Assembly (NCBI GenBank): GCA_951406725.2
Contig: OX597826.1
Location: 27,590,001 to 27,654,000 of the forward strand
DNA: 64,000 nucleotides
Source of the DNA: Octopus vulgaris
Lineage: Eukaryota
Direction of reading: 5' to 3'
Numbering within the stretch: position 1 is the stretch's first letter; every line of letters starts with the position of its first letter. Below are positions 2,364 through 63,457 of this stretch, piece by piece. Under the pieces are notes generated by a model, which was not told the origin of the DNA, did no database searches, and saw only the letters and a list, made by a program, of their open reading frames with translations. The position numbers and the translations under genes were made by a program.

Positions 2364-3381
<1,018 letters not shown>

Positions 3382-5917: not shown

Positions 5918-6640
5918 TCGTTTTATTTTTAAAGCGTGCTTTCACTTCAATACCGCGCGCAGCTCTGTATGCCTTGGGTATGTGCTGTGATTTGTTGTGA
6001 TGCTCTAATGGTTATTGTATGGAAAGTGTTCTGCGTAGGATTTGTGCAGTGCCTAGTAGTGCAAATTTCTGTATGTTATATGTGTTTGTAAGTCCTGGTG
6101 TTTTTGTTATGTATTTGTCTGAATATTTTTTTTTATCATGCCTAATGCACCTACTATGATAGGTATTGTTTCTGTTTTTAGATTCCACATTCTGGTTACC
6201 TCTATTTCCAGGTCTTTGTATTTTGAAAGTTTCTCCATTTCTTTTAGAGACACGTTGTTATCTGCCGGTATTGATACATCAATTAGAAAGCATTTTTTCT
6301 TCATGATCTCTGACAACTATATCTGGTCTGTTGGCCTTAATTTCTCTATCTGTGTGTATTGGCATATCCCAGAGTATGGTTGCTTTCTCGTTTTCTGTGA
6401 CCTTTTCTTGTGTGTGCCTGTACCATCTTTTTTCTGTTGTTATTCCATAATGTTGGCATAGCATCCAGTGTATGTAGGTTCCAACTCTGTCATGTCTGTG
6501 AATATATTCCTTCTTAGCCAGGACTGGGCAGCCAGAGATAATATGATTTATTGTTTCTTGTCCATCTCCACATATTCTGCAGTTACTTATTATATTTCTT
6601 TTCATTACATGTTTTTGGTAATTTTTGGTGAGGAGGCTTT
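5915..6640 (-). mobile_element. R4/Dong-like non-LTR retrotransposon 3' fragment (CCHC finger plus restriction-like endonuclease), frameshifted
   Basis: CRICGDGQETINHIISGC, YIHRHD, ILWD, NRPDIVV, FLIDVSIP, EKLSKYKDL, IPIIVGALG, ALLGTAQILRR; stop near 6012. (TTA)n at both junctions. Confidence 0.9.
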
Positions 6641-6652
6641 TATTATTATACT

Positions 6653-6740
<88 letters not shown>

Positions 6741-6742
<2 letters not shown>

Positions 6743-6885
6743 CCTTTGCTCAGCTTCTAACGCTGGAGATTAACTACACTATCAGTTGTTCACTACCAGT
6801 GAACTAAGATAACACCTCTTATTTTTCGAGCACATTCTAGAGTATTCGAGCGGTTCCAAGTAGTGCTGTTTTCTGCAAGTGCTCC
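6741..6885 (-). mobile_element. R4/Dong-like extreme 3' fragment, family C
   Basis: Encodes EHLQKTALLGTARIL; same family as 51779-52065; lies between TAG and TAA tracts. Confidence 0.75.
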
Positions 6886-11449: not shown

Positions 11450-11848
11450 GGGCAGCGAGCTGGCAGAAACATTAGCACGCCGGACGAAATGCTTAGCGGT
11501 ATTTTGTCTGTCTTTACGTTCTGAGTTCAAATTCTGCCGAGGTCGACTTTGGCTTTCATCCTGTCGGGGTCGATAAATTAAGTACCACTTGCGTTCTGGG
11601 GTCGATCTAACCGACTGACCCCCTCCCCCAAAATTTCGGGCCTTGTGCCTATAGTAGAAAAGTAAATTTTTTTAAGGCGGAGAGCTGGCAGAAACGTGAG
11701 CACGCCGGGTGAAATGCTTAGCGGTATTTTGTCAGACGTTACGTTCTGAGTTCAAATTTCGCCAAGGTCGAATTTGCCTTTCATCCTATTACAGTCGATT
11801 AAATGAGTACAAGTTACGCACTGAGGTTGATGTAACCGACTTAATCCA
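11450..11848 (+). mobile_element. Two tandem tRNA-derived SINEs (ggcggcgagctggcagaaacgttagc family)
   Basis: A-box TGGCAGAAACGTTAG-like, B-box GTTCAAATT, central gcctttcatcct.tcggggtcgataaattaagtacc domain. Confidence 0.8.
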
Positions 11849-12190
11849 TATGAGCGTGTCCACACACCCTCATATACAACTGTATACTTGCGCATACCAC
11901 CCCTTCCTACCTCCCCTCCAACACCCTGACCGTTTTCTTGTCTATCATGCGGTCGATTTCCTGTCTACCACGTGGTAGTTCAACATGGAGTGTTTACCAA
12001 CTAACTGTCGTCACTGACATACAGTTGTAACAAAAAACCACGAAAGCATGTGACCTTCGCCGACCAATCGCAGCCCACCTTATGGTAATAACTATCAATT
12101 TCTTTCATTCAAATTCAAAATGGCTGAAGATTAGAGTCACGCCTGAAACTCTTTGAGTACCAACGAATTTGAATCAAACACTTTTGATCC

Positions 12191-15892: not shown

Positions 15893-16420
15893 ATGGTTTC
15901 ACATTTTGGCACAAGGCCAGCAATTTCGGAGGGAGCATGTTAGGCTATTACATCGGCCCCATTACTCAACTTATTTTTACGAGCCTGGAAAGATGAAAAG
16001 TAAAGTCAACCTCGAAGGAAATTGAACTCAGAACGTAAAGAAAGACGAAATATATCACTAAGCATTTTGTCTGGCATGCTAATAATGATAATAATAAACC
16101 TTTTTTACTATAGGCGCAAGGCCTGGAATTTTAGGATTGAGGTTAAGTCGATTACATCGACCCCAGTGCGTAACTGGTATTTATCTCATTGAACCCGAAA
16201 GAACGAAAGGCAATATCGACATCGGCGAAATTTGAACTCATAACGTAAGGACGGACGAAATGCCGCTAAGCATTATTCCTGGCGTGCTAACGAAACTGCC
16301 AGCTCTCTAATAATAATAATGATGATAATAATGGTTTCAAATTTTGGCACCAGGCCTGCACGTTCGGTGGAGGTGTGAATCGATTACATTGACCTCAGTG
16401 AATAACTGGTACTTATTTCA
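15893..16420 (-). mobile_element. Cluster of three SINE copies (ggcggcgagctggcag family)
   Basis: Reverse complements of the 11450 family, separated by short TAA runs. Confidence 0.75.
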
Positions 16421-21850: not shown

Positions 21851-22078
21851 AGGCGATCTGGCAGAAACGTTAGCACGCCGGGCGAAATGCGTAGCCGTAT
21901 TTCGTCTGCCGTTACGTTCTGAGTTCAAATTCCGCCGAGATCGACTTTGCCTTTCATCATTTCGGGGTCGATTAAATAAGTACCAGTTACGCACTGGGTC
22001 GATATAATCGACTTAATCCGTTTGTCTATCCTTGTTTGTCCTCTCTGTGTTTAGACCCTTGTGGGTAGTAAAGAAATA
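21851..22078 (+). mobile_element. tRNA-derived SINE with LINE-like 3' tail
   Basis: Same head and body as the 11450 family, but ends ccttgtttgtcctctctgtgtttagacccttgtgggtagtaaagaaat. Confidence 0.85.
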
Positions 22079-24787: not shown

Positions 24788-25832
24788 CTAGTTTCTTTTA
24801 ATTTCTGTCCACCGCATCCACTCCCAAGAATTTGGCCGACCCGAGGCAATAGCGGTAAAGAGTTGCCGAAGTTGCCACGCGGTGGGACTGAACCATATGG
24901 TTGGGAAGCAAGCTTCTTTTCTAAGCAGATAAGGTAAGAGAGAGAGAGAGAGAGAGAGGTTAACAGAGATGGAAATAGAGAGAAGCAAAAGGAGAGAAGG
25001 AATGGCTATGCGAGAAAATAGAAGAAGAACCAAGAATAAAGAGAGAAGTGCATAAAATGAAAGAGAGAAAGAGAGGCAGAATGAAAAGGGATAAAATATG
25101 AAGAATGAGAGGAGAAAGAAAAAATTATGGGAGAAGAAAGATTGTAAATGGGAAATCTTAGAAGGAGGAAAAATGATTAGAAAAGATTGAGAAAGAGAGA
25201 GAAGAAAATGAGAAAGGGCGTGGGTGAGAGAGAAAAATAGGAGAGAGAAAAATAAGAGAGGAAAGGAGCAAGACAGTCAGTGTTAAGGAGAGGGAGAGAA
25301 TGAAGAGAGAGAGAGAGAGGAAGAAAGGAGAAAGAGGAAGAAAGGAGAAAGAGGAAGAAAGGAGAAAGAGGAAGAAAGGAGAAAGAGTAAATGTGTGTGA
25401 GAGAGGGGAAGAAAACAATGAAGAAAAAACCAGACAGGGTGAGGCGTAGTGAGAGGAGAAGGAAAGAGCGAAGAGGAAAACTAAAATAGCATTAGATATC
25501 ATCTGGTGGATTTTATTCGATTTGGTCAGACTCGAACCCCATATCCCTCTTGATCCTATGTAGCATTTGAAGGGTCATCAGGGCAGAATTTGTTGTCCAT
25601 ACAGATATGGTATATGTAGGGTTTTGTGTTTCTTTTTACTGGACAGCCGACCGTGTGTGCCTGTTTCCAGAATGATAAACTCCTCTTTCCAATGGTCGTT
25701 GGATGATTTCAATGAGCAACACGTAGAGGAAGCGATACAGTCTGAGATAATGGAGGAAGGGATGTTGAGAGAGAGAGGGGGAATGGTGAGAGGGTTCGGA
25801 GATAGAAGACAGGAAAAGGAGATATCAATAAG

Positions 25833-25890
<58 letters not shown>

Positions 25891-25891
25891 T

Positions 25892-27595
25892 GTTTCTTTA
25901 TTAGCCACACAGGGCTGCACACAGATAGAACAAATTACAAGGTAGAGCTTTTCTTTTGAAGGTAAAAAAAAAAAGAAAAGGGGGGGGGGGCGATCAAAAG
26001 GGATCGTAAAAGGAGAGAAAGAGGACAAAAAAAGGTGGGGGTTAAAAAAAAAATTGATCAATAGGGATCATTATCACAGAAATGTCAATATGAAGTGTAA
26101 AGGGGAGGACAGGTGAGGTTTACCCGTGGAAAGAAAAGCCTACGGAAAAGACCACGGTAACCTCGGTCAATGCAACTCTGTATTAATTAATAAGCAACTC
26201 TGTATTAATTTTTACGGTTCATAGAATCATAGTCAAGGTGGCTTCGTCATTCATACGTGCTATCCTTGCTACATTCACCCATCTTTTTTTAAAACATTCA
26301 CTAGACAAAACTTGCCTCTCTACTCACTTTTTCTTCAAGTGATACTTGAAGAAGTTGATGAGAGATTGACCAGAGAGGAAAGTGTTTGTCTCTAATCCTT
26401 TCAGGCGCGTCCACCAGATACATTCTTTCGCCATAGCCACAAGTATGATAAAAATAGCTCTTCCTTCCCGTTTGAAGGAAGGAGGCGTGACGATATTAAT
26501 GATAGACTCGGCTGATAAACCGACACGTCCCACACGTGACAGCAGTCGTTCGACATAAGCCCACAGGTGGGAAATTGCTGGACACTGCACGATTGCGTGC
26601 AGAGCGGTTTCGTCGCTCTGCCCGCATCTCGGGCAGGTCGGCCCCGTGTTTCTCGAGCCATGCCTATAGAGCTTATCCCCAACGGGTAGCGCTTCTCGGT
26701 AGCACCGCCAGGCCAGGGATCTCTGGAAGTTGTCCATAGGTCCCGGGCCGAAAGTCGTTTGAAACAGGCGGGTCAGGTATTCCTCGTCGACGCCCAGGTT
26801 TGCCCCGAGCTCGTCGTCGTACCTCCCCTCCACTAATCCCCTATAGAATGCTTTGGTTGCGTTGAAGTCACTCAAGGTCGACCCGGGACGGCAGAGTTGC
26901 TTGAGAGCAACGCGACACTCGCGGTGCCATTCGCCCTTCCTCGGCCTCTTTTTGATCCACGACTGTAGTTCGGTCATGGAGACGAGTTGCGGGAATGCGT
27001 GCCTCACAAACGGCGACCACACCTGTTCACCGTCGTCTACATGGAGCCGGAGATGGCGCAGTCTCAGCGCGTGTCTGCGCATCATCAACCACGGCATGCC
27101 CAGCCCTCCTTTTAACGGGTGTTGACAGCAAATGGATCGCCTGACCATCGGGACGCATCCTTTCCACAAGAAGCGGAAGAGGATGCGTTCTAGTTTGGTG
27201 ATGGTAGGGTCGGGACAAGGTACGACGGTCAGGCGGTAGTAGATGATGGACGCGATGTACGCGTTCACCACCTCCGCCCGACCTTTTAGGGACAGTTTCC
27301 TCTCGGCCCATTGCTGGGCGAGAGTGACCACCCTACTCGTTATCTCGTTCCAGTTCTTCTCCATTTGGAGGTCCGGACCGAACCAGACCCCGAGCAACTC
27401 AACCGGGCCGTCTGTCCAGCGTCCCACGACGGAGGTACTGGTAGACGGCATGGGCTTGCTTCTCCAGGTGCCGAGCCATAAGCCCACTGACTTTTCCCGG
27501 TTGATTTTTGCTCCTGTCACCGCTTCGTAGTCTTTCAGTGTCTCGCCGACCCGCTCGATGTGCTCGTGGCTTGACACTATGACGGTGACGTCGCC

Positions 27596-35233: not shown

Positions 35234-35649
35234 TCATCGTGAGACTGCTAACATTTCTGTAATATACAGGAGGCTTCCAATCTTCTATATTTTTCCTCTA
35301 AATTGTTGACCGTTCACCAATAAATCGAACTGTCCTTGAAAAAGACAGACATAAAAAAGCGTGATATTTAGTTTGAACACCCCCGTACATAAAGTGCACA
35401 CATACACGCATTTATGTGCCTTTAAAACTTTACTGCCACGTTTCAAATTTGTATGCTCACAGACATACATATTTTTGCGTAATACATGCATTCATATCTA
35501 CTGATGCATATGACATGTATATATACATAAATAGACTTAATGACACACTCGCATGCATATGTATATATGCATATACATATACATACATTCATATACATAT
35601 ATATAATTTTGTATGTAATATAATTTTTAATCTTAGGATTTTTAAAATA

Positions 35650-35888
35650 TGTTAAGCCTCTGGTTTTAATTGATTAATATCAATTTCTATCCTCAATATT
35701 TAATTTCGCTAGCCACTACACATTCTTTATTTTCTCCCCTTGTTTCTTTCTGTGTTCCTTTATATAGAAGAGCGTAGACTCGAAACGTTAAAGTCTTTTT
35801 CACTTCCCAAACGTTAAACTAATACATCTGTTTGTTGTCTACACCACCTGTCTTCGTCTTTTGTTTTTCTTTTGGGGAATTCTCCCTA
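35650..35888 (+). mobile_element. Probable PLE terminal fragment with hammerhead-like remnant (35757-35793)
   Basis: cttt...gaagagcgtagactcGAAAcgttaaag, with a degenerate core; ends in (TA)n. A related tail lies at 55820-55950. Confidence 0.4.
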
Positions 35889-40073: not shown

Positions 40074-40382
40074 TGACGGATGTGATGTCGTTTCAGCTCC
40101 GAAGGTAATCATTTATTTTGACTATTTATAGGCCAATTTTTGTGTAGATTTTTGCAAATAAGGTGTGTAAGGCAACCAACTTTCATTTGAGTGCCATTCC
40201 AAGGAGGAATTCGCCCCTAGGGGCAGTTTCGACCCCATTTCATTTCTGTTATTTTCTTCTCGACATTAGAAAATGTCTAGAAATTTTATTGTTGAACGCT
40301 GGTCGCGTTCTTTTTTGGAACAACATTTTCCTAGTCTGGAAACGACAGAGAAAAAAAGAACGTTCGCACGGAAAATGCCAAC

Positions 40383-42122
40383 GTGAAATTCGGTGAAAGG
40401 AACGCTGCAACCACGTGCGTTAACAGCCCTGTCACCAACGCCACCACCACCACTAACAACAGCAACCACGAGACAACAACTGCTACCACCACCACCTCCA
40501 CCACCACCACCACCACTACCACGACCAACATAAATGATAAAAATAAAACTGAAACGAAAACTATTGACAAAAACAACAGCAACAACAAGAACAACAATAA
40601 AAATGAACTATCTAATAGTGAAGATGCTAATACAAAAAAGTCAACAACAGTAAATTTCGCAGATATTCTTCGCCAGAAAAAGGAGATTGTTACATTCACA
40701 AATGAAGAGCTCATAGAAACAAGAGCTCTCTTTACAACCCGTGGACAAGATTTAGTCCTGCATACACCTCAACATATAAAACAAGAAATTGAAAATAAGA
40801 CAATTGTATATAAAATTATTAGAAAAAACAAAAAACCAAATGAACAGATTACAAAAACTGATGTGGAGAAATGTTTAAAAAATATAATGAAAGAAAAAGA
40901 GTATATAAACTGGGGTCCACAGTTTAACACAGTAGTGGTCCGCTTCCCTAACCAGGAAGTGGCAAAAGCTCACTCTACTGAGTCTCTGGGAAATGATGAA
41001 ATCATCATGGTCCCTTATTATAAAAACCAGAGGGTGAGTAGAATTACTATCAGAAATGTACCCCCCGATATGCCGAACAAATGGATAACAGGGGCAATCT
41101 GTTACCACTTGAAAAAGATCAATATTCTAGAAACAGCCGTGTACCTAAACGACAATTGGGGTGGAAAAACAGTAGTTGTGACCATCCAGATTGAGGGGGC
41201 CTCTATCGAGAGCCTACCCGACAAGATATACTTGGAGAATGGGCAATGCCTATATGTTATGGCAGAAGGCAAAAAGCCTAGATGCTACAAATGTGGCAGC
41301 CCCGAACATTTGATTGCCAAGTGCGATCTGGTACAGAAAAAACAAGAAAGAACAATTCAGAAAACAAATAAAATCCCTTTGTTGCCAACACCAACACCAA
41401 CACACTCAATTATGGAACAACGCCAAGAAAAACAACAAACCCCAACAACATCACCAAGAAAAACAGTACCAACACAATCACCGTTGACGTCACAACCAAT
41501 TAAACTTGTTGAATCTTCAAAAAATCGACCCACACCCACACCCAGGACGACAATTAAAAAGACAGAAAACACTGACGAGAAGACAAATGCTACCCCTAAC
41601 ACCACAACAACACAAACACCGCACAAAACATCAACAATTTATACAAGCATACATAGTGATCCTGTTCTTTTTCCTCTACCCCATACTGATACGTCGGACG
41701 ACGAAAGTTCGACGGAATGGCAAATAGCCACAGGGGGTAAAAGAAAAAGATCCAAAAAATCCACCAAACAAGGAATTAAAGCAGGGAGATATCTCACTCA
41801 GGACAACATTCCCCTAGACAATCAAAAAAGTAATGAACCCGTAAAACCACACACACAACTAACTGCAATAGACACAGACAATAAAGAATTAATGGACTAC
41901 ATCAAATCTAACATGGTCGTCTGTGAAGATGATTTTAAGACAAACAACCATCCGCACACCACACCACCGAAACACATCAGAATTTTACACATAACACAAG
42001 CACAACACCACATACTGAAAACATTATTTCCGAATGCGGTAGGCGGGTATCAACGATACCTGTCGAAAAAAACTATACAAACACCTCATCAAAAACGATA
42101 CAAAAGAAGAAGAAAAAAATGA
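40383..42122 (+). CDS. LINE ORF1p, gag-like nucleic-acid-binding protein
   Basis: 579 open codons; RRM-like segment (VVVRFPN...ITIRNVPPD), CX2CX4HX4C knuckle CYKCGSPEHLIAKC, T/P-rich linker, basic C-terminus. Start is uncertain (GTG; the ATG at 40375 is one base out of frame). Confidence 0.85.
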   Translation: MKFGERNAATTCVNSPVTNATTTTNNSNHETTTATTTTSTTTTTTTTTNINDKNKTETKTIDKNNSNNKNNNKNELSNSEDANTKKSTTVNFADILRQKKEIVTFTNEELIETRALFTTRGQDLVLHTPQHIKQEIENKTIVYKIIRKNKKPNEQITKTDVEKCLKNIMKEKEYINWGPQFNTVVVRFPNQEVAKAHSTESLGNDEIIMVPYYKNQRVSRITIRNVPPDMPNKWITGAICYHLKKINILETAVYLNDNWGGKTVVVTIQIEGASIESLPDKIYLENGQCLYVMAEGKKPRCYKCGSPEHLIAKCDLVQKKQERTIQKTNKIPLLPTPTPTHSIMEQRQEKQQTPTTSPRKTVPTQSPLTSQPIKLVESSKNRPTPTPRTTIKKTENTDEKTNATPNTTTTQTPHKTSTIYTSIHSDPVLFPLPHTDTSDDESSTEWQIATGGKRKRSKKSTKQGIKAGRYLTQDNIPLDNQKSNEPVKPHTQLTAIDTDNKELMDYIKSNMVVCEDDFKTNNHPHTTPPKHIRILHITQAQHHILKTLFPNAVGGYQRYLSKKTIQTPHQKRYKRRRKK

Positions 42123-42210
42123 AACTTTTAAAATGAGTAAGTGACCTCACTTCTTGCCTCTTGTCTCTTCTAATATAGTGTGTAAAACACAATTTTCGTA
42201 ATTGTCAAGT

Positions 42211-45200
42211 ATGCTTAAATTAGGTTGTGTGAATGCGCGTGGCTTGGCGTCGGCTTGGAAGCAAGGTTACCTTCTAAACGACATCAAGTCACTGGACGTG
42301 GATATAGTAGCTATCAGCGAAACCAGACTCAGTAAGCCGCGGGCCCTCGAGTCCATGTTTGGCAATCAATTTGACATTTATTTTTCTCCCTGTCTGCCGA
42401 ACATGGGTGGTGGAGGTACTGCGGTGCTTTTTCGAAAGAGTCTAAAGGTAAAAGTAAGAGCAATATTCCTAGACCAGGAGGGTAGGCTGGTTGTCTTGGA
42501 CGTGGATGGCAGAAATGGGTGTGCATTCCGTCTGATGGCAGTTTATGCACCGTCCTTAACGGGTCGGGCGGATTTCTTCAGACGTCTAGAGGTTTTCCTG
42601 GGTACGTCTAGACCTTTACTGTTAGTAGGGGATTGGAACGCTACCTTGGACACGCATCTAGATTATGTGGGAAGGGATAGGAATAGAAGGGGGTGTAAGA
42701 GCCTCAAAGACCTGCTCAGACGTTTTCATTTGTCTGACAGGTTCCGACTCGACCATCCGAACGTGCCAACGTGGACTTGGACAAACCGCGTCGGATCGTC
42801 GAGATCTTATCTAGATAGAATTCTATGCAGGACAGCGGATAGGGATAGTGTAGGATGTCCACAATTTAAAATAGTCAGCTACACAGATCACAAATTTGTT
42901 ACGTGTACGCTCGACTTAGATAAAACACATAGGCAGGGTCCCGGTTACTGGAAACTGAACACGTCGCTGTTAGCGCGACAGGTTTACAGGAACCGGATTA
43001 GCGAGTTAATTAAGAGGGCGCTGACGGGAGCGGTCGTTAACAACCGCTGGTGGTACGCCCTGAAAATGGCAATAAAATCGGAATCAATTAGGTTTAGCAA
43101 GGAATTAGCGATAGAACGAAATAGAGTAGAGGGAGACTTAGTTAAGAAACTAGAAGAGGCACTTACCACTGGCAACGCAACCAACGTGCTAGCTGCGAGG
43201 ATGGCCCTCGACCAACACCTCAACGCCAAGCACGAAGGTTGCGTCGTCAGAGCTAAAATGCGTGCCTTAAGGAACGAAGGGATTGAAGCTGCGCGAGAGG
43301 CCCGGGTAGCGGAGGCGCAGCGTGGCAACAGATCAACCATTCGGTCTCTAATAGATCAACAGGGATGCAGTTTACTCGAACCCGAAAGGATGTGTGAGGC
43401 CTTTCAACAGCACTTTGCTCGACTGTTTGGTGCGAGTGGTGGGTCGGAACGAGGGATGGATTTCAGTGCCTACCTGACCGACCTGCCGCGGCTCTCGGCA
43501 AGAGAGGCGGAGTGTTGTGAAAGTCCCATCACAGCCGCTGACGTGTGGGATGCGATGGCGGGCTGCGCGAGGGATAAGTCGCCTGGATTGGATGGTTTAC
43601 CCTACGAGCTGTATTGTCGAATGCCAGACTTGTTTGGCGACCTCTTGGCATCAGTCTACTGCAACTGGCAACAAAACGGGAGAATCCCCGGTTTCGTGAG
43701 CCGAGGTGCAGTGACGTTGCTGAAGAAAGACTCAAACAAGGGGAATTTTATAGATAATTTCAGGCCCATCACTCTGCTCAACGCAGATTTGAAAATTTTG
43801 GCCAAAGTAATAGCCGAGAGGTTGGCGCTTGTCATTGGTAAACTGGTCGACAGGGCGCAAACATGCGCCGTGCCGGGCAGAACCATACATGACAACCTCC
43901 ATCTGATGCGCTACATTGTGGACAGGGTAGTTAAGGATTCTGGCATGGGTGGGGCGCTGATAAATTTGGATCAGTCTAAAGCCTTCGATAGGGTCGACCA
44001 TCGGTACTTGGCGGCCGTCCTCAGGGCGGCTGGCTTCGGTCCCGTCTTCCGCGGTTGGATCGCTGCCTTGTATAGCGGCATCCGATCGGTGATTCGGGTG
44101 AACGGTCACCTGTCTAAACCGTTTGACATCACGCGTTCGGTCCGTCAGGGGTGTCCCCTGTCGGCGCTTCTGTATGTATTGACTCTCGAGCCGCTACTGC
44201 GGAAGCTGGCGACACTGAGGGGCATCCCACGGGAACTGGGTTGCGGGACGAGCGTGTCGGCATATGCGGACGATGTCACCGTCATAGTGTCGAGCTACCA
44301 GCACATCGAGCTGGTCGGCGAGACACTAAGAAAATATGAAACGGTGACGGGAGCAAAGATTAACCCGGAAAAGTCAGTGGGTTTGCTACTCGGCACCTGG
44401 AGAAGCAAGCCCATGCCGTCCGACTGCGGCTCAGTAGTGGGACGCTGGACGGACGGACCGGTTAAATTGCTCGGGGTCTGGTTCAGTCCGGACCTCCAAA
44501 TGGATAAGAACTGGGACGAGATCACGAGTAGAGTGGTCGCTCTCAGCCAAACATGGGCCGAGAGAAAGCTGTCTCTAAAAGGCCGGGCGGAGGTGGCGAA
44601 CGCGTACATCGCATCCGTCATCGATTACCGCCTGACCGTCGTACCTTGTCCCGACGCCACCATCACCAAACTGGAACGCATACTCTTCCGCTTCCTGTGG
44701 AAGGGTGGCGTTCCGATGGTGAGGAAGTCCATTTGCTGTCAACATCCGTTGAATGGAGGACTGGGCATGCCGTGGTTGATGATGCGCAGGCATGCGCTGA
44801 GACTGCGACATCTCTGGAAATTCATCGACGACGGTGAACAGGTGTGGGCGCCGTTTGTGAGGCGCGACTTCCCGCAGCTCGTCTCACTGACCGAACTGCA
44901 AACGTGGATCAAAAAGAGACCGAAACTGGGCGATTGGCACCGAGAGTGTCGCCAAGCTCTACAGCAGCTCTGCCGACCGGGGTCAAACTTGTGCAACTTC
45001 CAAACGACTAAAGCGTTCTATAGAGGACTAGTGGAGGGGAGGTCCGACGACACACTCGGGGCAAACCTGGGCGTCGACGAGGAATTCCTAACCCGCCTGT
45101 TCAGGACGACGTTCGGGCCGGGGCCTATGGATAACTTCCAGAAATCCCTGGCTTGGCAGTGCTATCGAGACGCACTACCTGTTCGAGAGAAGAGCTACAG

Positions 45201-45651
45201 ACACGGTTCGAAAACCATCACCGGACCGACCTGCCCGAGATGCGGCCAGAGCGACGAAACCGTTCTGCACGCACTCGTGCAGTGTCCAGATATTTCAGAG
45301 CTGTGGTCCTTCGTCGAACAGCTGTTGTCACGTGTAGGTCAGGCTCGCCTATCGGCCGAGTCTATTGTGAATATTGTTCCACCACCTTCCTTTAAACGGG
45401 AAGGGAAAACGGTTTTCGTTACGCTGTTGGCTATGGCGAAAGAATGTGTGTGGTGGACGCGTTTGAAAGGACTGCAAACAAACACCTTCCTCTCTGGTCA
45501 GTCTCTCGTCAACTTTTTCAAGTACCACTTGAAAAGGAGGATGAGAATAGAGAGGAAGGCTTTGTCGAACGAATGTTTTAATAAAAAGTGGGTAAAAGTG
45601 GCAAAAATGGTCAGTATGAAAGACGACACTATTTTAAGCATAAATCTGTAA
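42211..45651 (+). CDS. LINE ORF2p: AP-like endonuclease, reverse transcriptase and C-terminal zinc finger
   Basis: APE motifs VNARGL, ISETR, YAP, GDWN, SYLDRIL, TDH. RT motifs SPGLDG, FRPITLLNADLKI, DQSKAFDRV, VRQGCPLS, YADD. Also GGLG and CPRCGQSDETVLHALVQC. First ATG at 42211. Confidence 0.97.
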   Translation: MLKLGCVNARGLASAWKQGYLLNDIKSLDVDIVAISETRLSKPRALESMFGNQFDIYFSPCLPNMGGGGTAVLFRKSLKVKVRAIFLDQEGRLVVLDVDGRNGCAFRLMAVYAPSLTGRADFFRRLEVFLGTSRPLLLVGDWNATLDTHLDYVGRDRNRRGCKSLKDLLRRFHLSDRFRLDHPNVPTWTWTNRVGSSRSYLDRILCRTADRDSVGCPQFKIVSYTDHKFVTCTLDLDKTHRQGPGYWKLNTSLLARQVYRNRISELIKRALTGAVVNNRWWYALKMAIKSESIRFSKELAIERNRVEGDLVKKLEEALTTGNATNVLAARMALDQHLNAKHEGCVVRAKMRALRNEGIEAAREARVAEAQRGNRSTIRSLIDQQGCSLLEPERMCEAFQQHFARLFGASGGSERGMDFSAYLTDLPRLSAREAECCESPITAADVWDAMAGCARDKSPGLDGLPYELYCRMPDLFGDLLASVYCNWQQNGRIPGFVSRGAVTLLKKDSNKGNFIDNFRPITLLNADLKILAKVIAERLALVIGKLVDRAQTCAVPGRTIHDNLHLMRYIVDRVVKDSGMGGALINLDQSKAFDRVDHRYLAAVLRAAGFGPVFRGWIAALYSGIRSVIRVNGHLSKPFDITRSVRQGCPLSALLYVLTLEPLLRKLATLRGIPRELGCGTSVSAYADDVTVIVSSYQHIELVGETLRKYETVTGAKINPEKSVGLLLGTWRSKPMPSDCGSVVGRWTDGPVKLLGVWFSPDLQMDKNWDEITSRVVALSQTWAERKLSLKGRAEVANAYIASVIDYRLTVVPCPDATITKLERILFRFLWKGGVPMVRKSICCQHPLNGGLGMPWLMMRRHALRLRHLWKFIDDGEQVWAPFVRRDFPQLVSLTELQTWIKKRPKLGDWHRECRQALQQLCRPGSNLCNFQTTKAFYRGLVEGRSDDTLGANLGVDEEFLTRLFRTTFGPGPMDNFQKSLAWQCYRDALPVREKSYRHGSKTITGPTCPRCGQSDETVLHALVQCPDISELWSFVEQLLSRVGQARLSAESIVNIVPPPSFKREGKTVFVTLLAMAKECVWWTRLKGLQTNTFLSGQSLVNFFKYHLKRRMRIERKALSNECFNKKWVKVAKMVSMKDDTILSINL

Positions 45652-45960
45652 CCAAAAGAGACAACGAGAAGTAAGGCGACTTACTCATGTGTTCTTTTTC
45701 GAATTGCCTGAGGTGACCTTGGTCTTTTTTGTAGGTTTTTCTTTCCAAGACTACACCTAAACTGTGAACCTTATATATATATATATATAGTGCTTTTTTA
45801 TACACCACACAACCCACAGATCCCTATTGATCAAACGTTTCCTTTTTTTTTTCTTCTTCTTCTTGCCCCACCCATCCCACCTCGAAAAGAAAAAATTCTA
45901 CATTGTATTTCGTCCATTTTTATTCTGTGTTTAGCCCTGTGTGGCTACAATAAAAAGTTA

Positions 45961-45992
45961 TCTATCTATCTATCTATCTGTATGTTTGTCTG

Positions 45993-46029
<37 letters not shown>

Positions 46030-46108
46030 TTATCTATCTATCTATCTGTCTGTCTGTCTGTCTGTCTGTTTCTCTGTGTGTCTGTCTAACTGTCTGTCTG
46101 TCTATCTC

Positions 46109-46748: not shown

Positions 46749-46962
46749 AAGGCGGCAAGCTGGCAGAGACGTTAGCACGCCGGGCGAAATGCGTAGCCGT
46801 ATTTCGCCTGCCGTTACGTTCTGAGTTCAAAATCCGCCGAGGTCAACTTTGCCTTTCATCCTTTCGGGGTCGATAAATTAAGTACCATTTACCTACCGGA
46901 GTTGATCTAATCGAGTAGCCTCCTCCCCAAACTTTTCAGGTCTTGTTCCTAGAGCAGAAAAT
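46749..46962 (+). mobile_element. tRNA-derived SINE (ggcggcgagctggcag family)
   Basis: Full head, body and the common tail. Confidence 0.85.
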
Positions 46963-47037: not shown

Positions 47038-47660
47038 ATCACGCACCTTACGTCGTTTTCAAATAAACACCTGCAACATTTGTCTGTGACATTTCTCATT
47101 CATTTAGGACGAAATTTTATCATCAAATGACCAAACTAAAAACACAGACTTTTAGTGTACTAATTTGTCATACGGAGGCCATGCTGTGGCCGCATGTACT
47201 TGTGATCTATGCTAAAACATCTTGGAAAGTATAAATCAGCCAAAATATTGAAATAACACCGATTCAAATATTTCAGTTAATATTCTTTTCTACCCTAGGC
47301 ACAAGGCCCGACATTTTACAGGGAGGGGGCCAGTTGATTAGATCTACCCCAGTATGCAACTGGTACTTAATTTATCGACCCGAAAAGGATGAAAAGCAAA
47401 GTCGACCTCGGCAGAAATCTCACTTATTATTATTGGCAAATTGAAGATGGCAAGCTGGCAGAATCGTTAGTACGCCGGGCGAAATGCTTAGCGGTATTTC
47501 CTCTGTCTTTACGTTCTGAGTTCAAATTCCGCCGAGGTTGACTTTACATTTCACCCTTTCTGAGTCGATAAATTAAGTACCAGTTGCGTATTGGAGTAGA
47601 TCTATTCGACTAGCCTTCTCGCCAAACATTTCTGTCCTTGTGCCTAGAATCGAAAAGAAT
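47027..47660 (+). repeat. Local segmental duplication, copy 1 (copy 2 at 49251-49880)
   Basis: Non-SINE sequence caccttacgtc.ttttcaaataaacacctgcaac... plus the same back-to-back SINE pair. Confidence 0.9.
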
Positions 47661-49262: not shown

Positions 49263-49880
49263 TAATGACCCACCTTACGTCATTTTCAAATAAACACCTG
49301 CAACATTTGGCTGTGACATTTCTCATTCATTTAGACCGAAATTTTATCATCAAATGACCAAACTATAAACACAGACTTTTAGTGTACTAATTTGTCATAC
49401 GGTGGCCAAGCTGGGGCCGCATGTACTTGTGCTCTGTGCTAAGACGTCTTGGAAAGGATAAATCAGCCAAAATATTGAAATAACACCGATTCCAATATTT
49501 CATTTATTATTCTTTTCTACCCTAGGCACAAGGCCCGAAATTTTGCAGCTAAGGGGCCAGTCGATTAGATCTACCCCAGTATGCAACTGGTACTTAATTT
49601 ATCGACCTTTCAAAGGATGAAAGGCAAAGTCGACCTCGGCAGAAATCTCACTTATTATTATTGACAAACTGAAGGTAGCAAGCTGGCAGAATCGTTAGTA
49701 CGCCAGGCAAAATGCTTGTCTGCCGATACGTTCTGAGTTCAAATTCCGCCGAGGTCAACATTGCATTTCATCCTTTCTGAGTCGATGAATTAAGTACCAA
49801 TTGCGTACTGAGGTCGATCTAATCGACTGCCCCCCCCTCCCCCAAAATTTGGAGCCTTGTGCCTAGAGTAGAAAAGAATC
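49251..49880 (+). repeat. Local segmental duplication, copy 2
   Basis: Matches 47027-47660 with scattered substitutions. Confidence 0.9.
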
Positions 49881-50580
49881 GTTAGCACGCCGGACAGAAT
49901 GCTTATCGGCATTTCGCCCGTCATTACGTTCTGATTTCAAATTCCTCCGAGGTCGACTTTACCCTTCATCCTTCGGGGTAGATAAAATGAGTACCAGTTG
50001 AACACTGGGTTCGATGCAGTCTACTAACCTTCTCTCAAATTTCAGGCCCTGTGCATATAGTAGAAAGGATTATTATTGGCAAACTGGTAAAATCGATAGA
50101 GCATCGAAAAAATGTCTTGTGATATTTTTCTGGATCCTAAAATTCTGAGTTCGTTTCCCCTTTGTGTTAACTTCGCTTTTATCTCTCAAGGTTCGATAAA
50201 ATAAATATGCCAGTGAAATCAGTGCAATTAGCTAACTTCTTCCCCTCCAAATTGTCGGATTTAGCTGGATATCTTTGGGTTCTTTATATTCTGGGTTGAA
50301 ATTCCGACGAGTTCCACTTTACCATTCATCTTTTGGGTTCGACAGGCCCTGTGCCAATAGTAGAAAGATATTATTTTCAAGCTTTTGCACAAGGCCAGCA
50401 ATTTCAGGAAAGAGGTAAGTCGATTTTATCAACCTCAGTGTTCAACTAATTTTATGGGCCTTGATAGAATGGAAGAAAAGGTCTACCTCGGCGGCATTTC
50501 AGTACAGAATGTAAAGACAGACGATATGTCACAAAAGCATTTTGCCAAGCGGGCTAACGATTTTGCCAGCTTGTCCCCTT
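49878..50580. mobile_element. Cluster of about four further SINE copies
   Basis: Repeated gttctgagttcaaattcc / cctttcatcc..ggggtcgataaa motifs on both strands. Confidence 0.7.
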
Positions 50581-52065: not shown

Positions 52066-53079
52066 TTTATATGGATGTACGTCCGTGTGTGTGTGTGTGT
52101 GTAATTAATTACGACAGAAGTAATGTTAGAGTAAAGTAATATTGATCTCCAACTTAACGTAGATGTTGTGTTAGAACACATACCTTTACTGTTACAAATA
52201 TCTCAGAGCCTACCTCCAATTTAACACCACTGTTACTACGTGAACAACACTAGAACCAACACAGCATCAACTGCAGTACAACCACCACCACTACCAAAAC
52301 TACTATCATCAATGTGACTTCTATCACCAGTAAGCACACTGAAACTAAGACCAGATGCACCATAGATTTTCTGAAACCTTCGATACCGAAGCATGTACGG
52401 AAGAGTACTTTTTTTCCGAACGAGATGTGGTTACGCTCGAAATTAAACGAATATTAAATTTACTTTAATAATTAAACTAAATACAAGTAGCTCTATATTA
52501 ATATAAACGATGCAAGTTTATTAGTATTGTGCCAGGTAAAGTAGTGTGAAACAAGGCTGCCTTGTAAATTAGTTTGGTAGCAGTGGTTTTTTCCAGCTTG
52601 TAAATGAGTGCGGAGTGTAAGAGTTTGTGCATTATCAGTGCCCGGAAAAAATTTATATCGTCAGTAGTTTATATATACGAAAAAGAAGCATACACTAAAC
52701 CATTATTTTTTAGGGAGTTAAATGTTATGGCAGGCCATAGAGTCACCATCGGTTTCACACTTATAAAGCGCTTAGCAGTATAGGCTGCTCCTCATGCTCA
52801 AATCGCCGAAGGTGCATAACCCCTCAACAGCTGGAGGAAGAAATACCTCATGGTCAGTTAGCTTTCTAAACAAAAATCATTTGTTCTTGCAGGAGCAAAG
52901 CACATTGGTTCAGGCCGTAGTAATATTCGAAGAAGTTGCGGCGGGCCTATTCAGCGAGAGGGGAATTCAAGCTTGTAGTAGGAAGCATTTTAGATGGGGG
53001 TTTGAGTAAATACTTCTTTCCTGGAGTTTAAAAAGGTCTTCGGTTCGAGCAAGTTTTTTTAGGACTCTCTCTCTCTCTC

Positions 53080-53140
<61 letters not shown>

Positions 53141-53381
53141 GCCAAGCAAAGCTGACATCATTTGGAGAACGCCACACTACCTACTGAACGCCTTGGACAA
53201 ATATCTTTTGTTTACAAATGTAACTGACAGTGACGAATTTCTTCATCCAATTGTAAAGAGCTTATGTGGTATGAGTCTAACGTGTCACCTATACTGCTAA
53301 GATCTTTATAGGTGCGAAACGAATCCTCTATACCCAGTCGTAACAATTCATTTCTGATATACACATATATACGTATATAAC

Positions 53382-53457
<76 letters not shown>

Positions 53458-53615
53458 AATTAAGGACTGAACACGAAAAAGTGGACAGTCAACATGCTAG
53501 ATATAGACGTCAAATCGCCATTCTCCACAAAGATTTTGTTCTCAAATAAAATAAAATTCAGCACGACCTAAAGCAATAGATAAGACAAAAGAAATATACG
53601 AAATGGAATAATCAC

Positions 53616-53677
53616 CTGCGTACCGAACGGTTTCAGCTATTAATATCACAAGGATATCTGTAGCTTCGTCAGCGCAG
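53616..53677 (-). ncRNA. Type I hammerhead ribozyme, copy 1
   Basis: Minus strand ctgcg-CTGACGA-agctacagatatccttgtgatattaatagct-GAAA-ccgttcg-GTA-cgcag; all three stems pair. Confidence 0.88.
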
Positions 53678-54122
53678 TTTGTTATGAGCATAATATGCTG
53701 TGCTAGATGAAAAACAGTACCGGAGTCCCATATGCAAAAAGTACAACCTATTAAGTTCGGATGTATCTTTCAAATGCCTTTACTTTTGGCGCGCTGAGAC
53801 TCGAAAAACCAGCCTGCAGCTAATAATTAGCAGCAGTCAATTTATCGGTTTGAGAACATATATTTCATATTTAAAAATTAAGGGTAAAAATTGATATTAG
53901 TCAATTAAAACCAGTGGTCTAGCACATTAAAAAGAATCCGAAGATTAAAATATTTATATATACCAATTAAGGACTGAACACGAAAAAGTGGACAGTCAAC
54001 ATGCTAGATATAGACGTCAAATCGCCATTCTTCACAAAGATTTTGTTCTCAAATAAAATAAAATTCAGCACGACCTAAAGCAATAGATAAGACAAAAGAA
54101 ATATACGAAATGGAATAATCAC

Positions 54123-54184
54123 CTGCGTACCGAACGGTTTCAGCTATTAATATCACAAGGATATCTGTAGCTTCGTCAGCGCAG
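54123..54184 (-). ncRNA. Type I hammerhead ribozyme, copy 2
   Basis: Identical to 53616-53677, 507 bp away. Confidence 0.88.
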
Positions 54185-54446
54185 TTTGTTATGAGCATAA
54201 TATGCTGTACTAGATGAAAAACGGTACCGGAGTCCCGTATGCAAAAAGTACAACCTATTAAATTCGGATGTACTTTAATTTCCTTTATATTTAAGATTCA
54301 CTATTAATATCCCTACTCTTTCTGTTAGCTACTTATGACGTTATATCATATAACATTTTTTTAAACTATTAATAGCGTTCTGTCTATCGCTATACAAATC
54401 CATCATTTTTTGCTAAAATGTCTTATTGACGAGTTTGGTTTTTTTC

Positions 54447-54532
54447 ACTTTCCTGAGGAGAAGATTGCATTGTTTATACCATTTATTCTTTTGAATAGTA
54501 TCAGTGGAATTTTCGAAACATGTGTCGAAAGT
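54447..54532 (+). ncRNA. Type I hammerhead ribozyme, unrelated family
   Basis: actttc-CTGAGGA-gaagatt...aattttc-GAAA-c-atgt-GTC-gaaagt; perfect 6-bp stem I. Confidence 0.82.
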
Positions 54533-54599
54533 AAAAATATTTGATTACACCTGCGTTAAACTCCATTTATTTATTCATATATATATATATATATATATA

Positions 54600-54741
54600 T
54601 TAGTACAGGACAGTACAAATAAACGTAGAATACAACGAGAAACGAAAACATAAAATCAAACAAGGAAAAGTCCGTTTCCTTGTTTGATTTTATGGTTTCG
54701 TTTCTCGTTGTATTCTACGTTTATTTGTACTGTCCTGTACT

Positions 54742-54743
<2 letters not shown>
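54600..54743. repeat. Near-perfect hairpin, ~69-bp arms and 6-nt loop, in (TA)n
   Basis: One mismatch between arms; loop agtccg. Confidence 0.92.
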
Positions 54744-54782
<39 letters not shown>

Positions 54783-54885
54783 GCATGTATATATACATAT
54801 AGATGTAGGTATGTACATATATGTATAGATGTATGCATATGTTTTATTTATCAAATTGTTATTATATATATTATATATATATTGT

Positions 54886-55205
54886 TATTATGTTTTCGGT
54901 TTTTTTATATTGTTACCATTTTATTGGGATCCTCTACCGTCATATGTTGTGGTGTGTGCTATTGTTCCATTCTATTTTCCCATTCAGGCTAGGTTTATTT
55001 TCTATTATGTGTGTAGCTTCTGTAATTTGTCTGATTGTTGCATCTGTTCTATGTGTGGACAAATTACAGAAGCTACACACATAATAGAAAAAAAATCTAG
55101 CCTAAATAGGAAACTAGAATGGAACACTAGCACACACCACAACATATGCCGGTAGAGGATCCCAATAAGATGGTTACAATATAAACAAAACCGAAAACAT
55201 AATAA
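54886..55205. repeat. Inverted repeat, ~145-bp arms and ~26-bp spacer
   Basis: tattatgttttcgg...gtagcttctgtaatttgtc / gacaaattacagaagctac...ccgaaaacataata. Confidence 0.9.
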
Positions 55206-56006
55206 ATAAAATACACAGATAAATAAACAAATAGAAATAAATAACTATTTTTTTTTAATTTAAAAGATTTTTATTTATTTATTATTATCATTACTAGTAT
55301 TGTTGTCATACATACATACATACATACATACATGCAAGCATATGTAATAATAATAATAAGTGGATGTAAACACATGAACAAAATAAGAATAAACAAAAAA
55401 ACAACAACAACAAAAACAAATTACATGAAAGTATATAAACAGAAGATACAAATATTACAGGCATCCCCCCCACACACACACAATAAATAAACATAGACGC
55501 ACATAGAGATATAAGCATGCGCAAGTGAAGACATACAATAGAAATACAAAATGGCTGACGGTTAGTAAGGAGAGACACAAATAGGAAAGAAGAAAATGAA
55601 GGACCACTGATGCGGTCTCAGGAGTGTGACGAAAGAGATTTGGCCGTAATAAGATTAAGATTAAGGTAAAAAATAAATAACACTGAAGCAAAGTAACACC
55701 AAATATATAGTGCGTGTGTTTTTATTGGCTAAACTGGCAAAATGACCATAACAATATATAACAATATCTGTTTCAACATACGACTTCACATAAAAAATCT
55801 TGCACAACAAATATATAGACTTGTTTTATTTATATTTCCTGAGCGCCATACTAATACAATTGTTTGTTTGTATTCCACCTGCCTTAGTCTTTTGTTTATT
55901 TCCGTAAACCTGCCTTCGTCTTTTGTCTATTTTCATAAAGCTTCCCGTTATATTATATATATATATATATACACATATACATACACACACACATATATAT
56001 ACATAC

Positions 56007-59019: not shown

Positions 59020-60400
59020 TTAATTTGTGTGATTCAGGAACTGGGATATTCCGACTAAATATTTTGCAGTATTTTTCCGACTGTACAGTCGACAGATCAA
59101 ATCCTGCCGAAGTCGAGTTTAAGTTTGATACCACACCGGTCGTTAAAATCAAGTACCTTTTGAGGACGATGTAATCGAATAGCACCATTCCTTTCAAAAT
59201 GTTTTCCCTTGTGTCTAAATAGCAAAAAATAGCTCCGTGAACTGGGAGACCGTTATTGATATGGAGAAAACACTTTGCTCTGTTTGAATCGTCTCTCTAC
59301 TTTCTGAGTTCGAATTCCGTCGAAGTCACTTTTACCTTTCATTCTACAGGTATCAGTCAAGTATTAGCATCGGGATAGCCGTCTTTAAACCAAACTTGAA
59401 ATTATTATGATAGTAAATAAAATATTCTATCGGTACTTTTTGCCAGCCTTTACGTTACGGGGACATCATCAAACTAACACCGGTTCCATTTAAGTATTGG
59501 TATTGGTGATGGCGACTAAACCCTCGCCTTACATAGCTGGCCTTTTGCTAAATTTTAAATCAAGATGGTAACCTCACAGACTCGTTAACGCGTCGGACAA
59601 AATTTTTATCAGCATTGCTTCCGGTTCTTAGCATTCTCCATTCAAAAACCGCCGAAATCACTTTCAGCTTTTCATCCTAATACGGTCGATAAAGTGAAGT
59701 ACTTGTCAGGTATTCTTTTCTTATTTCTTTACTGCCCACAAGGGTTTACACACAGAGGGGGACAAATAAGGACAGACAAACGGATTAAGTCGATTATATC
59801 GACTCCAGTGCGACTCCCGAAAGGATGAAAGGCAAAGTCAAACTCGGCGGAATTTGAACTGAGAACGTAGGGGCAGACGAAATACCAATTTCTTTACTGC
59901 CCACAAGGGGCTACACACAAAGGGGACAAACAAGGACAGACAAACGGCTTAAGTCGATTATTTCGACCCCAGTGTGTAACTGGTACTTATTTAATCGACC
60001 CCGAAATAATGAAAGGCAAAGTTGACCTCGGTGGAATTTGAACTCAGAACGTAGCGGCAGACAAAATACGCTAAGCATTTCGCCCGGCGTGCTAACGTTT
60101 CTGCCAGCTCGCCGCTTTAGGCACAAGGCCCTCCCCAACATTTCAGGCTTTGTGCCTATAATATTATTAAGGCGACGAGATGGTAGACTCGGTAGAGCGT
60201 CGAAACATTTTTACTTATTTATTTATTTTCTTTTTTTTTTGCGGTCTTTACTCCGACACTTTACATTCTGAGTTCAAATCTTGCCTGGGTCATTTCGCGC
60301 ATGTTATCCTACCAGTGTTGATAAAATAATCGAGCTATCAAATCAAATCGAGAGATTGATAGTGTCGAACAACCCCTGATCCGCTCCTTCAACCACACCC
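59020..60400. mobile_element. SINE cluster including two minus-strand copies with LINE-like tails (59724-59886, 59888-60118)
   Basis: tttctttactgcccacaagggg(c/t)tacacac...ggacaaa ends; degenerate plus-strand copies on either side. Confidence 0.8.
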
Positions 60401-62495: not shown

Positions 62496-62509
62496 TTGTC
62501 TATCTATCT

Positions 62510-63135
62510 GTGGCTATGGCGAAAGAGTGTATCTGGTGGACGCGTCTGAAAGGATTGGAGACAAGCACTTTCCTCTCTGATCAACCTCTCATCAAATTCT
62601 TCAAGTACCACTTGAAAAGGAAAGTGAGAGTAGAGAGGCAAGTTTTGTCTAGCGAACGTTTTAAAAAAGATGGGTGAATGTAGCAAGGATGGCACGTATG
62701 AATGACAAAGCCACCTTGAGCATAATCCTATGAACCCAGAAATTGAAAACAGAGGGTTACCCACTTGCAAACAAATGTGGTAACATATAACAATATTGAC
62801 CAAGGTTAAGGTGGTCTTTTTCGTAGGCTTTTCTTCCCACGGATAAACCTTACTTGCTTTCCCCTTTACATCATACATCATGACACTGTGATACACGATC
62901 CCTATTGATCGTTTTTTTCCTCTTTTTTCTTCTTTTTTCATTTTTCTTTTCTTTTGTTCCTTTTCCCTTTTTCATTTTTTCTTTTCCTTTTTTTCTTTTT
63001 TTTGTTCTTTTTTCCCTTTTACGATCCCTTTTGATCGAAAACCTACGCCACCTTTTTTTTTCTCCCCCAAAAGAAAAGCTCTACCTTGTAACTTGTCCCA
63101 TCTGTGTGCAGCCCTGTGTGTCCAATAAATAAACT
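62510..63135 (+). mobile_element. 5'-truncated L1/Tx1-type LINE in (TCTA)n, subfamily B
   Basis: AMAKECIWWTRLKGLETSTFLS...FFKYHLKRK plus a 3' UTR matching 25892-26220; TCTA at both junctions. Confidence 0.93.
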
Positions 63136-63457
63136 TATCTATCTATCTATATCTATATCTATCTATATATATATATATAAACATACACATACGCATACAT
63201 ATGTATGTACTCATGTGTGTGCGACTTTATGTCTGTGTTTGTCCTCCCACCATCACTTGACAACTGATGGTGGTGTGTTTACGTCCCCGTAACTTAGCAG
63301 TTCGGCAAAAGAACCCGATGGAATAAGTACTACACTTACAAACAATAAGTCGTGTAGTCGATTTCTTCGACTAAAAATCAATTTAAGGCGGTGCTCCAGC
63401 TTGGCCGCAATCATTTGATTGAAACAATAAATAGAATAAAATTATGCACATATATAC

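Follow-up and report, generated by a model that had tools for sequence, protein, structure and literature searches.

The analysed DNA is a 64-kb stretch of the Octopus vulgaris genome (64,000 nt; hereafter the window) that is AT-rich, laden with microsatellites and occupied by Tx1/L1-type LINEs. It contains a partial tandem repeat with two intact ribozyme motifs, an inverted neighbour that bears a further hammerhead, (TA)n flanks and no coding capacity, all of which can be read directly from the nucleotide sequence. The tandem consists of two minus-strand direct repeats of 315 nt (copy 1 at 53958–54272 and copy 2 at 53451–53765) that align without gaps at a lag of 507 nt and are 98% identical. 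The five substitutions between them are all transitions, and two of these are CpG-type changes. Copy 1 is the 5′-shortened upstream copy, read as a 5′ pseudo-LTR, and copy 2 is read as the 3′ pseudo-LTR. A unique 192-nt spacer (53766–53957, minus strand) makes up the 5′ part of the full 507-nt unit (53451–53957, minus strand), with copy 2 as the remainder; the unit is non-coding and T-rich on the minus strand. The spacer is present once and is missing upstream of copy 1. The tandem amounts to 1.62 units only (i.e. one 507-nt unit plus the 5′-shortened 315-nt copy), does not form an array and occurs as one copy within the window. TRF, run with three parameter sets including published ones and with periods up to 1000 or 2000, did not report the 507 period.

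Both repeat copies stop at the same base, beside TA. A short TATATA stretch terminates copy 1. The minus-strand element has a (TA)n microsatellite (53409–53454) at its 3′ end, which is its probable insertion target. The whole block (53455–54576) is flanked by (TA)n on both sides, with both 3′ ends facing outward, and an (AT)n microsatellite (54577–54600) closes it on the other side. The region is rich in microsatellites, with 94 (TA)5+ runs in the window.

Each 315-nt copy includes an identical 80-nt stretch that carries a type I hammerhead on the minus strand (hammerhead 1 at 54123–54184, core start 54179; hammerhead 2 at 53616–53677, core start 53672). Both hammerheads have (i) the core CUGACGA...GAAA, a GUA cleavage triplet and an open helix I, i.e. 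type I topology; (ii) a helix I of 5 bp with a distal extension and a helix II of 5 bp with a 6-bp upper stem; and (iii) a helix III of 3 bp with a GUUC loop, which can also be drawn as ACCG-UU-CGGU (4+2+4 geometry) with the cut after A. The original prediction of two identical minus-strand type I hammerheads, 507 nt apart in direct repeats of ~315 bp, is therefore borne out. The predicted cuts (54128/54127 and 53621/53620) are 507 nt apart and would delimit an RNA monomer of 507 nt with 34% GC (53621–54127, minus strand); the cut of the copy 2 hammerhead is 165 nt from the 3′ end. The probability that none of the five substitutions would land in the 80 nt by chance is 0.23, so that the perfect match between the ribozymes does not point to selection.

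A strict hammerhead descriptor has four matches in the window, compared with a mean of 0.02 (maximum 1) in 100 block-wise dinucleotide shuffles, and a looser descriptor recovers the same four hammerheads (0.06 in shuffles). The search with hammerhead models that had been proposed along with the original prediction gave it no backing: Rfam at gathering score returned no match over the whole window, hammerhead families included, and at E ≤ 10 over 52500–55500 none of the 33 matches, which were hairpin and microsatellite noise, belonged to a hammerhead family. This miss is possibly due to the long helix II.

Immediately upstream of the tandem, on the opposite strand and head-to-head with it, is a PLE-like 3′ end that finishes in (AT)n (54273–54576, plus strand). 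This neighbour is unrelated to the tandem, as it has no significant alignment with the 507-nt unit in either orientation. It carries a third type I hammerhead (54447–54532, plus strand; predicted cut 54526/54527) with the core CUGAGGA, a helix I of 6 bp, a long helix II and a helix III of 2 bp with a palindromic loop, i.e. the weak palindromic type. The opposite-strand hammerhead cores are 274 nt apart. An ambisense, viroid-like reading of these ribozymes was rejected because the plus-strand ribozyme falls outside the 507-nt monomer and the opposite strand of the monomer has no descriptor match.

At the junction (54273–54289, minus strand), the neighbour shows an imperfect microhomology: its sequence just 5′ of copy 1 and that preceding copy 2 agree in 13 of 17 columns. 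The anchored extension score was 18; 4 of 1000 shuffles scored at least as high, as did 1 of 264 alternative start points within the arm, in a post hoc test that was made once the match had been seen. This suggests that a cDNA end may have annealed to the neighbour at this point. The junction could reflect two successive insertions at a (TA)n hot spot, the later one next to an older PLE end, or a single event with two different RNA templates.

Coding capacity and other elements of the window

Stops break all six frames of the block, and the four block frames scanned with Pfam gave no match, which agrees with the original prediction that no recognisable coding domain lies between the hammerheads. 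For the window as a whole, Pfam found neither a PLE RT nor a GIY-YIG domain in the 18 long and the 150 shorter frames scanned, two sets that overlap in part. The filtered frames of at least 60 aa number 172, of which 149 were scanned together with one shorter frame; the other 23 sit inside the Tx1 element at 40335–45823, whose two main ORFs were scanned. Because no ORF with PLE RT and GIY-YIG is present, the locus is not an autonomous PLE copy, and the case for a PLE origin is built on layout rather than on sequence homology to a PLE.

Wider homology searches gave little. The 75-aa frame through the repeat, compared by phmmer with 1.84 billion proteins, had two matches at 25–29% identity, both to long repetitive proteins unlike retroelements; these were set aside, and the alignment of one of them (P0001) is a summed-repeat artefact. 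In bacterial and archaeal genomes, the exact pattern of the ribozyme motif was found at no locus, and that of the spacer motif at a single one (L001, 4499–4527), a match of 29 nt only that lies in the C-terminal part of a bacterial ORF of 478 aa; it was dismissed as chance. BLASTN against phages and plasmids yielded no match. None of eight window motifs occurs in the Naiad, Chlamys and Hydra consensus files (supplement of PMC8557442), and a full-text motif search of the literature found none of four motifs, two of which come from this locus.

The PLE-like style recurs in the window, with ends at 2476–3144 and 35618–35886. The first of these belongs to a young foldback (2472–3147; arms 2472–2744 and 2875–3147, with an extension to 3257) that sits between (TA)n runs and has arms that are 99% complementary. 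It bears outward-facing type I hammerheads, of which the plus-strand one (core 3028) is intact and the minus-strand one (2591) has a C3-to-G core change; it is a same-family inverted PLE-type insertion. The second (35618–35886, plus strand) is a decayed PLE-like 3′ end that runs into (TA)n and includes a broken hammerhead-like stretch at ~35760–35800; a later 70 nt of this element is common to 55829–55897. The first 87 nt of the spacer align with the start of this end (~35618–35704) with a score of 103, compared with a best score of 44 in 200 shuffles, and BLAST aligns the two over 80 nt at 82.5%.

Several further repeats were observed near the block and elsewhere in the window. Two foldbacks (54565–54778 and 54893–55196) have T-rich arms, lie in the same AT-rich tract and resemble each other weakly (an equally good score in 1 of 200 shuffles); they are probably short inverted element tails. 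Just left of the tandem, a 70-nt inverted repeat (52815–52884 and 53197–53266; 76%, arms 312 nt apart) surrounds (GA)n and is possibly a small DNA element. The Tx1/L1-type LINE (40335–45651, plus strand) has an open ORF1 of 595 aa with a weak zinc knuckle and an ORF2 of 1149 aa, which contains endonuclease (AP), RT and zf-RVT domains (42202–45648, Pfam) and whose best relative is 71% identical. Truncated relatives or fragments of the same LINE type are found at 25824–27593 (minus strand; 77% DNA identity to LINE positions 44271–46033), 62509–63178 (plus strand) and 6282–6749 (minus strand). A SINE-like family of ~200 nt is abundant, with many copies at 70–90% identity (e.g. 11450–11850, 15900–16300, 21852–22077, 46750–46960, 47450–47660, 49680–50070 and 59720–60120).

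Ribozyme folding and the prospect of a circular RNA

In ViennaRNA at 37 °C, the mean pair probability is 0.59–0.93 for helix I and 0.91–0.98 for helix II across the isolated, precursor and circular contexts, but only 0.02–0.03 for helix III, which does not form in these models because the core can mispair. The original description of the hammerheads as fully paired is thus correct for complementarity and fails for helix III of the computed fold. The active hammerhead fold is less stable than the minimum-energy fold by 1.8 kcal/mol. The helix III 10-mer has an energy of −0.9 kcal/mol as an isolated hairpin, compared with −11.2 kcal/mol as an intermolecular duplex, which makes a double-hammerhead between the tandem copies feasible. 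These models suggest that a dimer fold may be needed for cleavage here.

The 507-nt monomer is 64% paired, with a z-score of −2.5 as a circle (2 of 100 shuffles as good), ribozyme hairpins included, and of −2.73 in linear form. Were both ribozymes to cut, their spacing would yield a monomer of 507 nt, as predicted; the tandem is, however, only partial and is not called as a tandem by TRF. If the locus were transcribed, it is plausible, although helix III is weak, that a 507-nt RNA would be released that could be ligated into a circle.

Tandem type I units of 150–450 bp give circles, most likely via an RtcB-type ligase (PMC7229834). Metazoan PLE hammerheads have low activity and need dimers (Cervera and de la Pena 2014, PMC4209133), and a PLE hammerhead cleaves only with the protein of the element and is dispensable for insertion in vitro (Frangieh et al., PMC11167929). 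Of nine predicted retrozyme dimers tested, eight did not cleave and one was cut (Li et al. 2026, bioRxiv 10.64898/2026.07.22.740005). That this particular copy yields a 507-nt circle in vivo through RtcB-type ligation is possible, but we consider it rather unlikely.

A 48-nt GT...AG stretch starts 5 nt past each cleavage site (54122–54075 and 53615–53568, minus strand). It has a donor-like site (CAG/GTGATT) and a pyrimidine tract, and none follows the other hammerheads. PLE pseudo-LTRs can carry a short intron, and the 48-nt stretch is possibly one.

Origin of the locus

We consider that the locus is probably a PLE insertion without an ORF, i.e. the 3′-terminal 507 nt of a PLE, or else a short non-autonomous PLE derivative, that forms pseudo-LTRs. 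This reading follows from a layout that fits the published PLE picture point by point, save for the absence of an ORF and the heterologous inverted arm. According to Craig et al. 2021 (PMC8557442), PLE insertions are partial tandems, truncated at the 5′ end, that give rise to a pLTR, and they often have an inverted 5′-truncated copy of the same element at the 5′ end. Hammerheads are present in both PLE pseudo-LTRs, and opposite-strand hammerhead pairs 100–700 bp apart have probably arisen from truncated PLEs (PMC4209133). In the Hydra clade, the hammerheads are on the sense strand, ~90–210 nt from the 3′ end in most families listed, and several share the 4+2+4 layout of helix III (PMC8557442). 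A (TA)n preference is recorded for the Hydra and Naiad PLE clades (PMC8557442) and for some others, and Neptune and Naiad elements favour microsatellites too. A PLE protein cuts AT-rich DNA on both strands and initiates reverse transcription at fixed internal sites downstream of the ribozyme (PMC11167929); 3′ ends at the same base in both copies are expected from such fixed start sites.

The mechanism proposed from PLE biology is as follows. The 315-nt repeats would be pseudo-LTRs, each with the hammerhead of the family, and the 5′-shortened copy would precede the full unit. The GIY-YIG endonuclease of an autonomous PLE would nick a (TA)n run, and the PLE reverse transcriptase would copy the RNA from a fixed 3′ point; more than one unit would be produced (from a tandem or circular template, or by re-priming) before an early stop. 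If the minus strand were transcribed, the ribozymes, probably as a double-hammerhead dimer or helped by protein, would cut out the 507-nt RNA, which a host RtcB-type ligase could circularise. We infer both the PLE origin and the route of insertion, in trans into (TA)n. The original prediction was right to link the tandem hammerheads to PLE pseudo-LTRs and retrozymes; however, a 1.62-unit partial tandem with an inverted neighbour and (TA)n is the ordinary PLE layout, which the prediction had itself named as the case that would count against it.

Besides the failure to find a PLE RT or GIY-YIG in the frames scanned, or any of the eight motifs in the published consensus files, two observations speak against the PLE reading. 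First, the inverted neighbour differs in sequence from the tandem; in the published insertions, tandem and inverted copy belong to one element. Second, the 35618 element starts, after AT-rich simple sequence, within ~25 nt of the homologous point of the 507-nt unit (n = 2). This near-shared 5′ start (n = 2) is a hint of a defined 5′ end and, hence, of a discrete non-autonomous family.

Such a family would be expected if the locus were a true non-LTR retrozyme, i.e. a discrete 507-nt non-autonomous family that is transcribed, whose RNA cleaves itself and becomes circular, and whose circles are used by a PLE RT for re-insertion, with the 1.62 units as a short rolling-circle product. We regard this as unlikely. 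It is favoured by intact ribozymes, whose helices are of canonical size and whose helix I is extended, by helices I and II that form in context, by a circle that beats shuffles, by non-coding sequence with a GC content below 50%, by a unit length inside the consensus range of 51–972 bp given by Li et al. (bioRxiv 10.64898/2026.07.22.740005) and by the 5′ start common to the 507-nt unit and the 35618 element. On the other hand, the locus has fewer than two full units, whereas a retrozyme needs two or more units in succession with a complete type I hammerhead in each, its 507 nt exceed the 150–450 bp of Cervera and de la Pena 2020 (PMC7229834), and it is a single copy in 64 kb. The retrozyme explanation overlaps our main reading, since retrozymes have been argued to derive from PLE pseudo-LTRs (Li et al. 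2026, bioRxiv 10.64898/2026.07.22.740005).

Alternatively, a local tandem duplication of one dead PLE end, by slippage or by unequal crossover between TA tracts, could have produced a 507-nt spacing that is unrelated to retrotransposition or to circRNA. The TATATA end of copy 1 and the density of (TA)5+ runs are compatible with this, and local amplification has been invoked for such repeats (Li et al., bioRxiv 10.64898/2026.07.22.740005). However, duplication of one unit should give two spacers or flanks, but the spacer is single; moreover, a 5′-shortened upstream copy is the norm for PLEs (PMC8557442). We therefore consider a local duplication very unlikely. Chance motifs or an assembly artefact, in line with the lack of an Rfam hammerhead match, can practically be set aside, because four descriptor matches stand against 0.02 expected and the copies differ at five sites, two of them CpG-type, unlike an assembly duplicate.

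A more far-reaching proposal combines two claims: (i) the 507-nt unit represents a discrete, modular non-autonomous family, which shares its 5′ module with another element and has a ribozyme module of its own, and whose ribozymes generate a circular RNA in a possibly cephalopod host group for which the literature searched holds no retrozymes; and (ii) the block 53455–54576 arose in a single insertion, with two different PLE RNAs copied at opposite strands of one (TA)n target and then joined head-to-head by microhomology. That both hold together is doubtful in our judgement. If a single two-template insertion did take place, the inverted arm of PLE insertions would come from a second RNA template.

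Comparison with known systems

Among known systems, the partial-tandem and inverted insertions of PLEs (PMC8557442, PMC4209133) resemble the locus in their direct pseudo-LTRs formed from a 5′-shortened upstream copy, with a type I hammerhead in each, a nearby hammerhead on the opposite strand and a (TA)n target. They differ in that the locus has no ORF between the repeats, a heterologous inverted arm and no evident tail of 30–40 bp. The Hydra-clade PLEs (e.g. Hydra-1_aMil, Penelope-1_NV and Hydra-1_oBim; File S2, PMC8557442) likewise have a helix III of four complementary bases around a centre of 1–2 nt, a hammerhead near the 3′ end and a preference for (TA)n. By contrast, helix II of the hammerhead at the locus is longer and includes an internal loop, and A9 is not followed by an extra base; motif searches gave no sequence match to the listed consensi, and the locus has no RT for clade assignment.

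Animal non-LTR retrozymes (PMC7229834; bioRxiv 10.64898/2026.07.22.740005) share with the locus a non-coding, low-GC, head-to-tail repeat, type I hammerheads one unit apart and a predicted monomer able to circularise. They occur as dimers to multimers, in contrast to 1.62 units here, and those studied experimentally measure 150–450 bp rather than 507 nt. Non-autonomous Chlamys elements such as MRC1 also derive from PLEs, have no ORF, and form both pLTRs and head-to-tail insertions, but they are green algal, and most Chlamys elements have no canonical hammerhead (PMC8557442). Plant LTR retrozymes, as described by Li et al., have two hammerhead-bearing direct repeats around a unique non-coding middle, as does the locus; theirs, however, are type III ribozymes accompanied by PBS/PPT and 4-bp target duplications, whereas the ribozyme here is of type I. 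As the flanks of the locus are microsatellites, a target duplication cannot be read from them.

Both kinds of element that the locus resembles, PLE insertions and retrozymes, are already described. An Octopus Hydra-clade PLE with a hammerhead (Hydra-1_oBim) has been published (PMC8557442), recently active Penelope families have been counted in Octopus vulgaris (PMC13282606) and animal genomes hold thousands of hammerhead motifs (PMC7229834, PMC4209133). Among the papers listed for octopus hammerheads and cephalopod retrozymes, none was found to report a cephalopod retrozyme. As it stands, the locus adds one to the known PLE-type hammerhead loci. How the tandem and inverted structures of PLEs arise is an open question (PMC8557442, PMC11167929), on which the heterologous inverted junction may have a bearing. 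The locus would matter more if a circular RNA were shown, given the step from pseudo-LTR to free retrozyme hypothesised by Li et al.; a young, ORF-less copy of 1.6 units is what an intermediate between PLE and retrozyme should look like.
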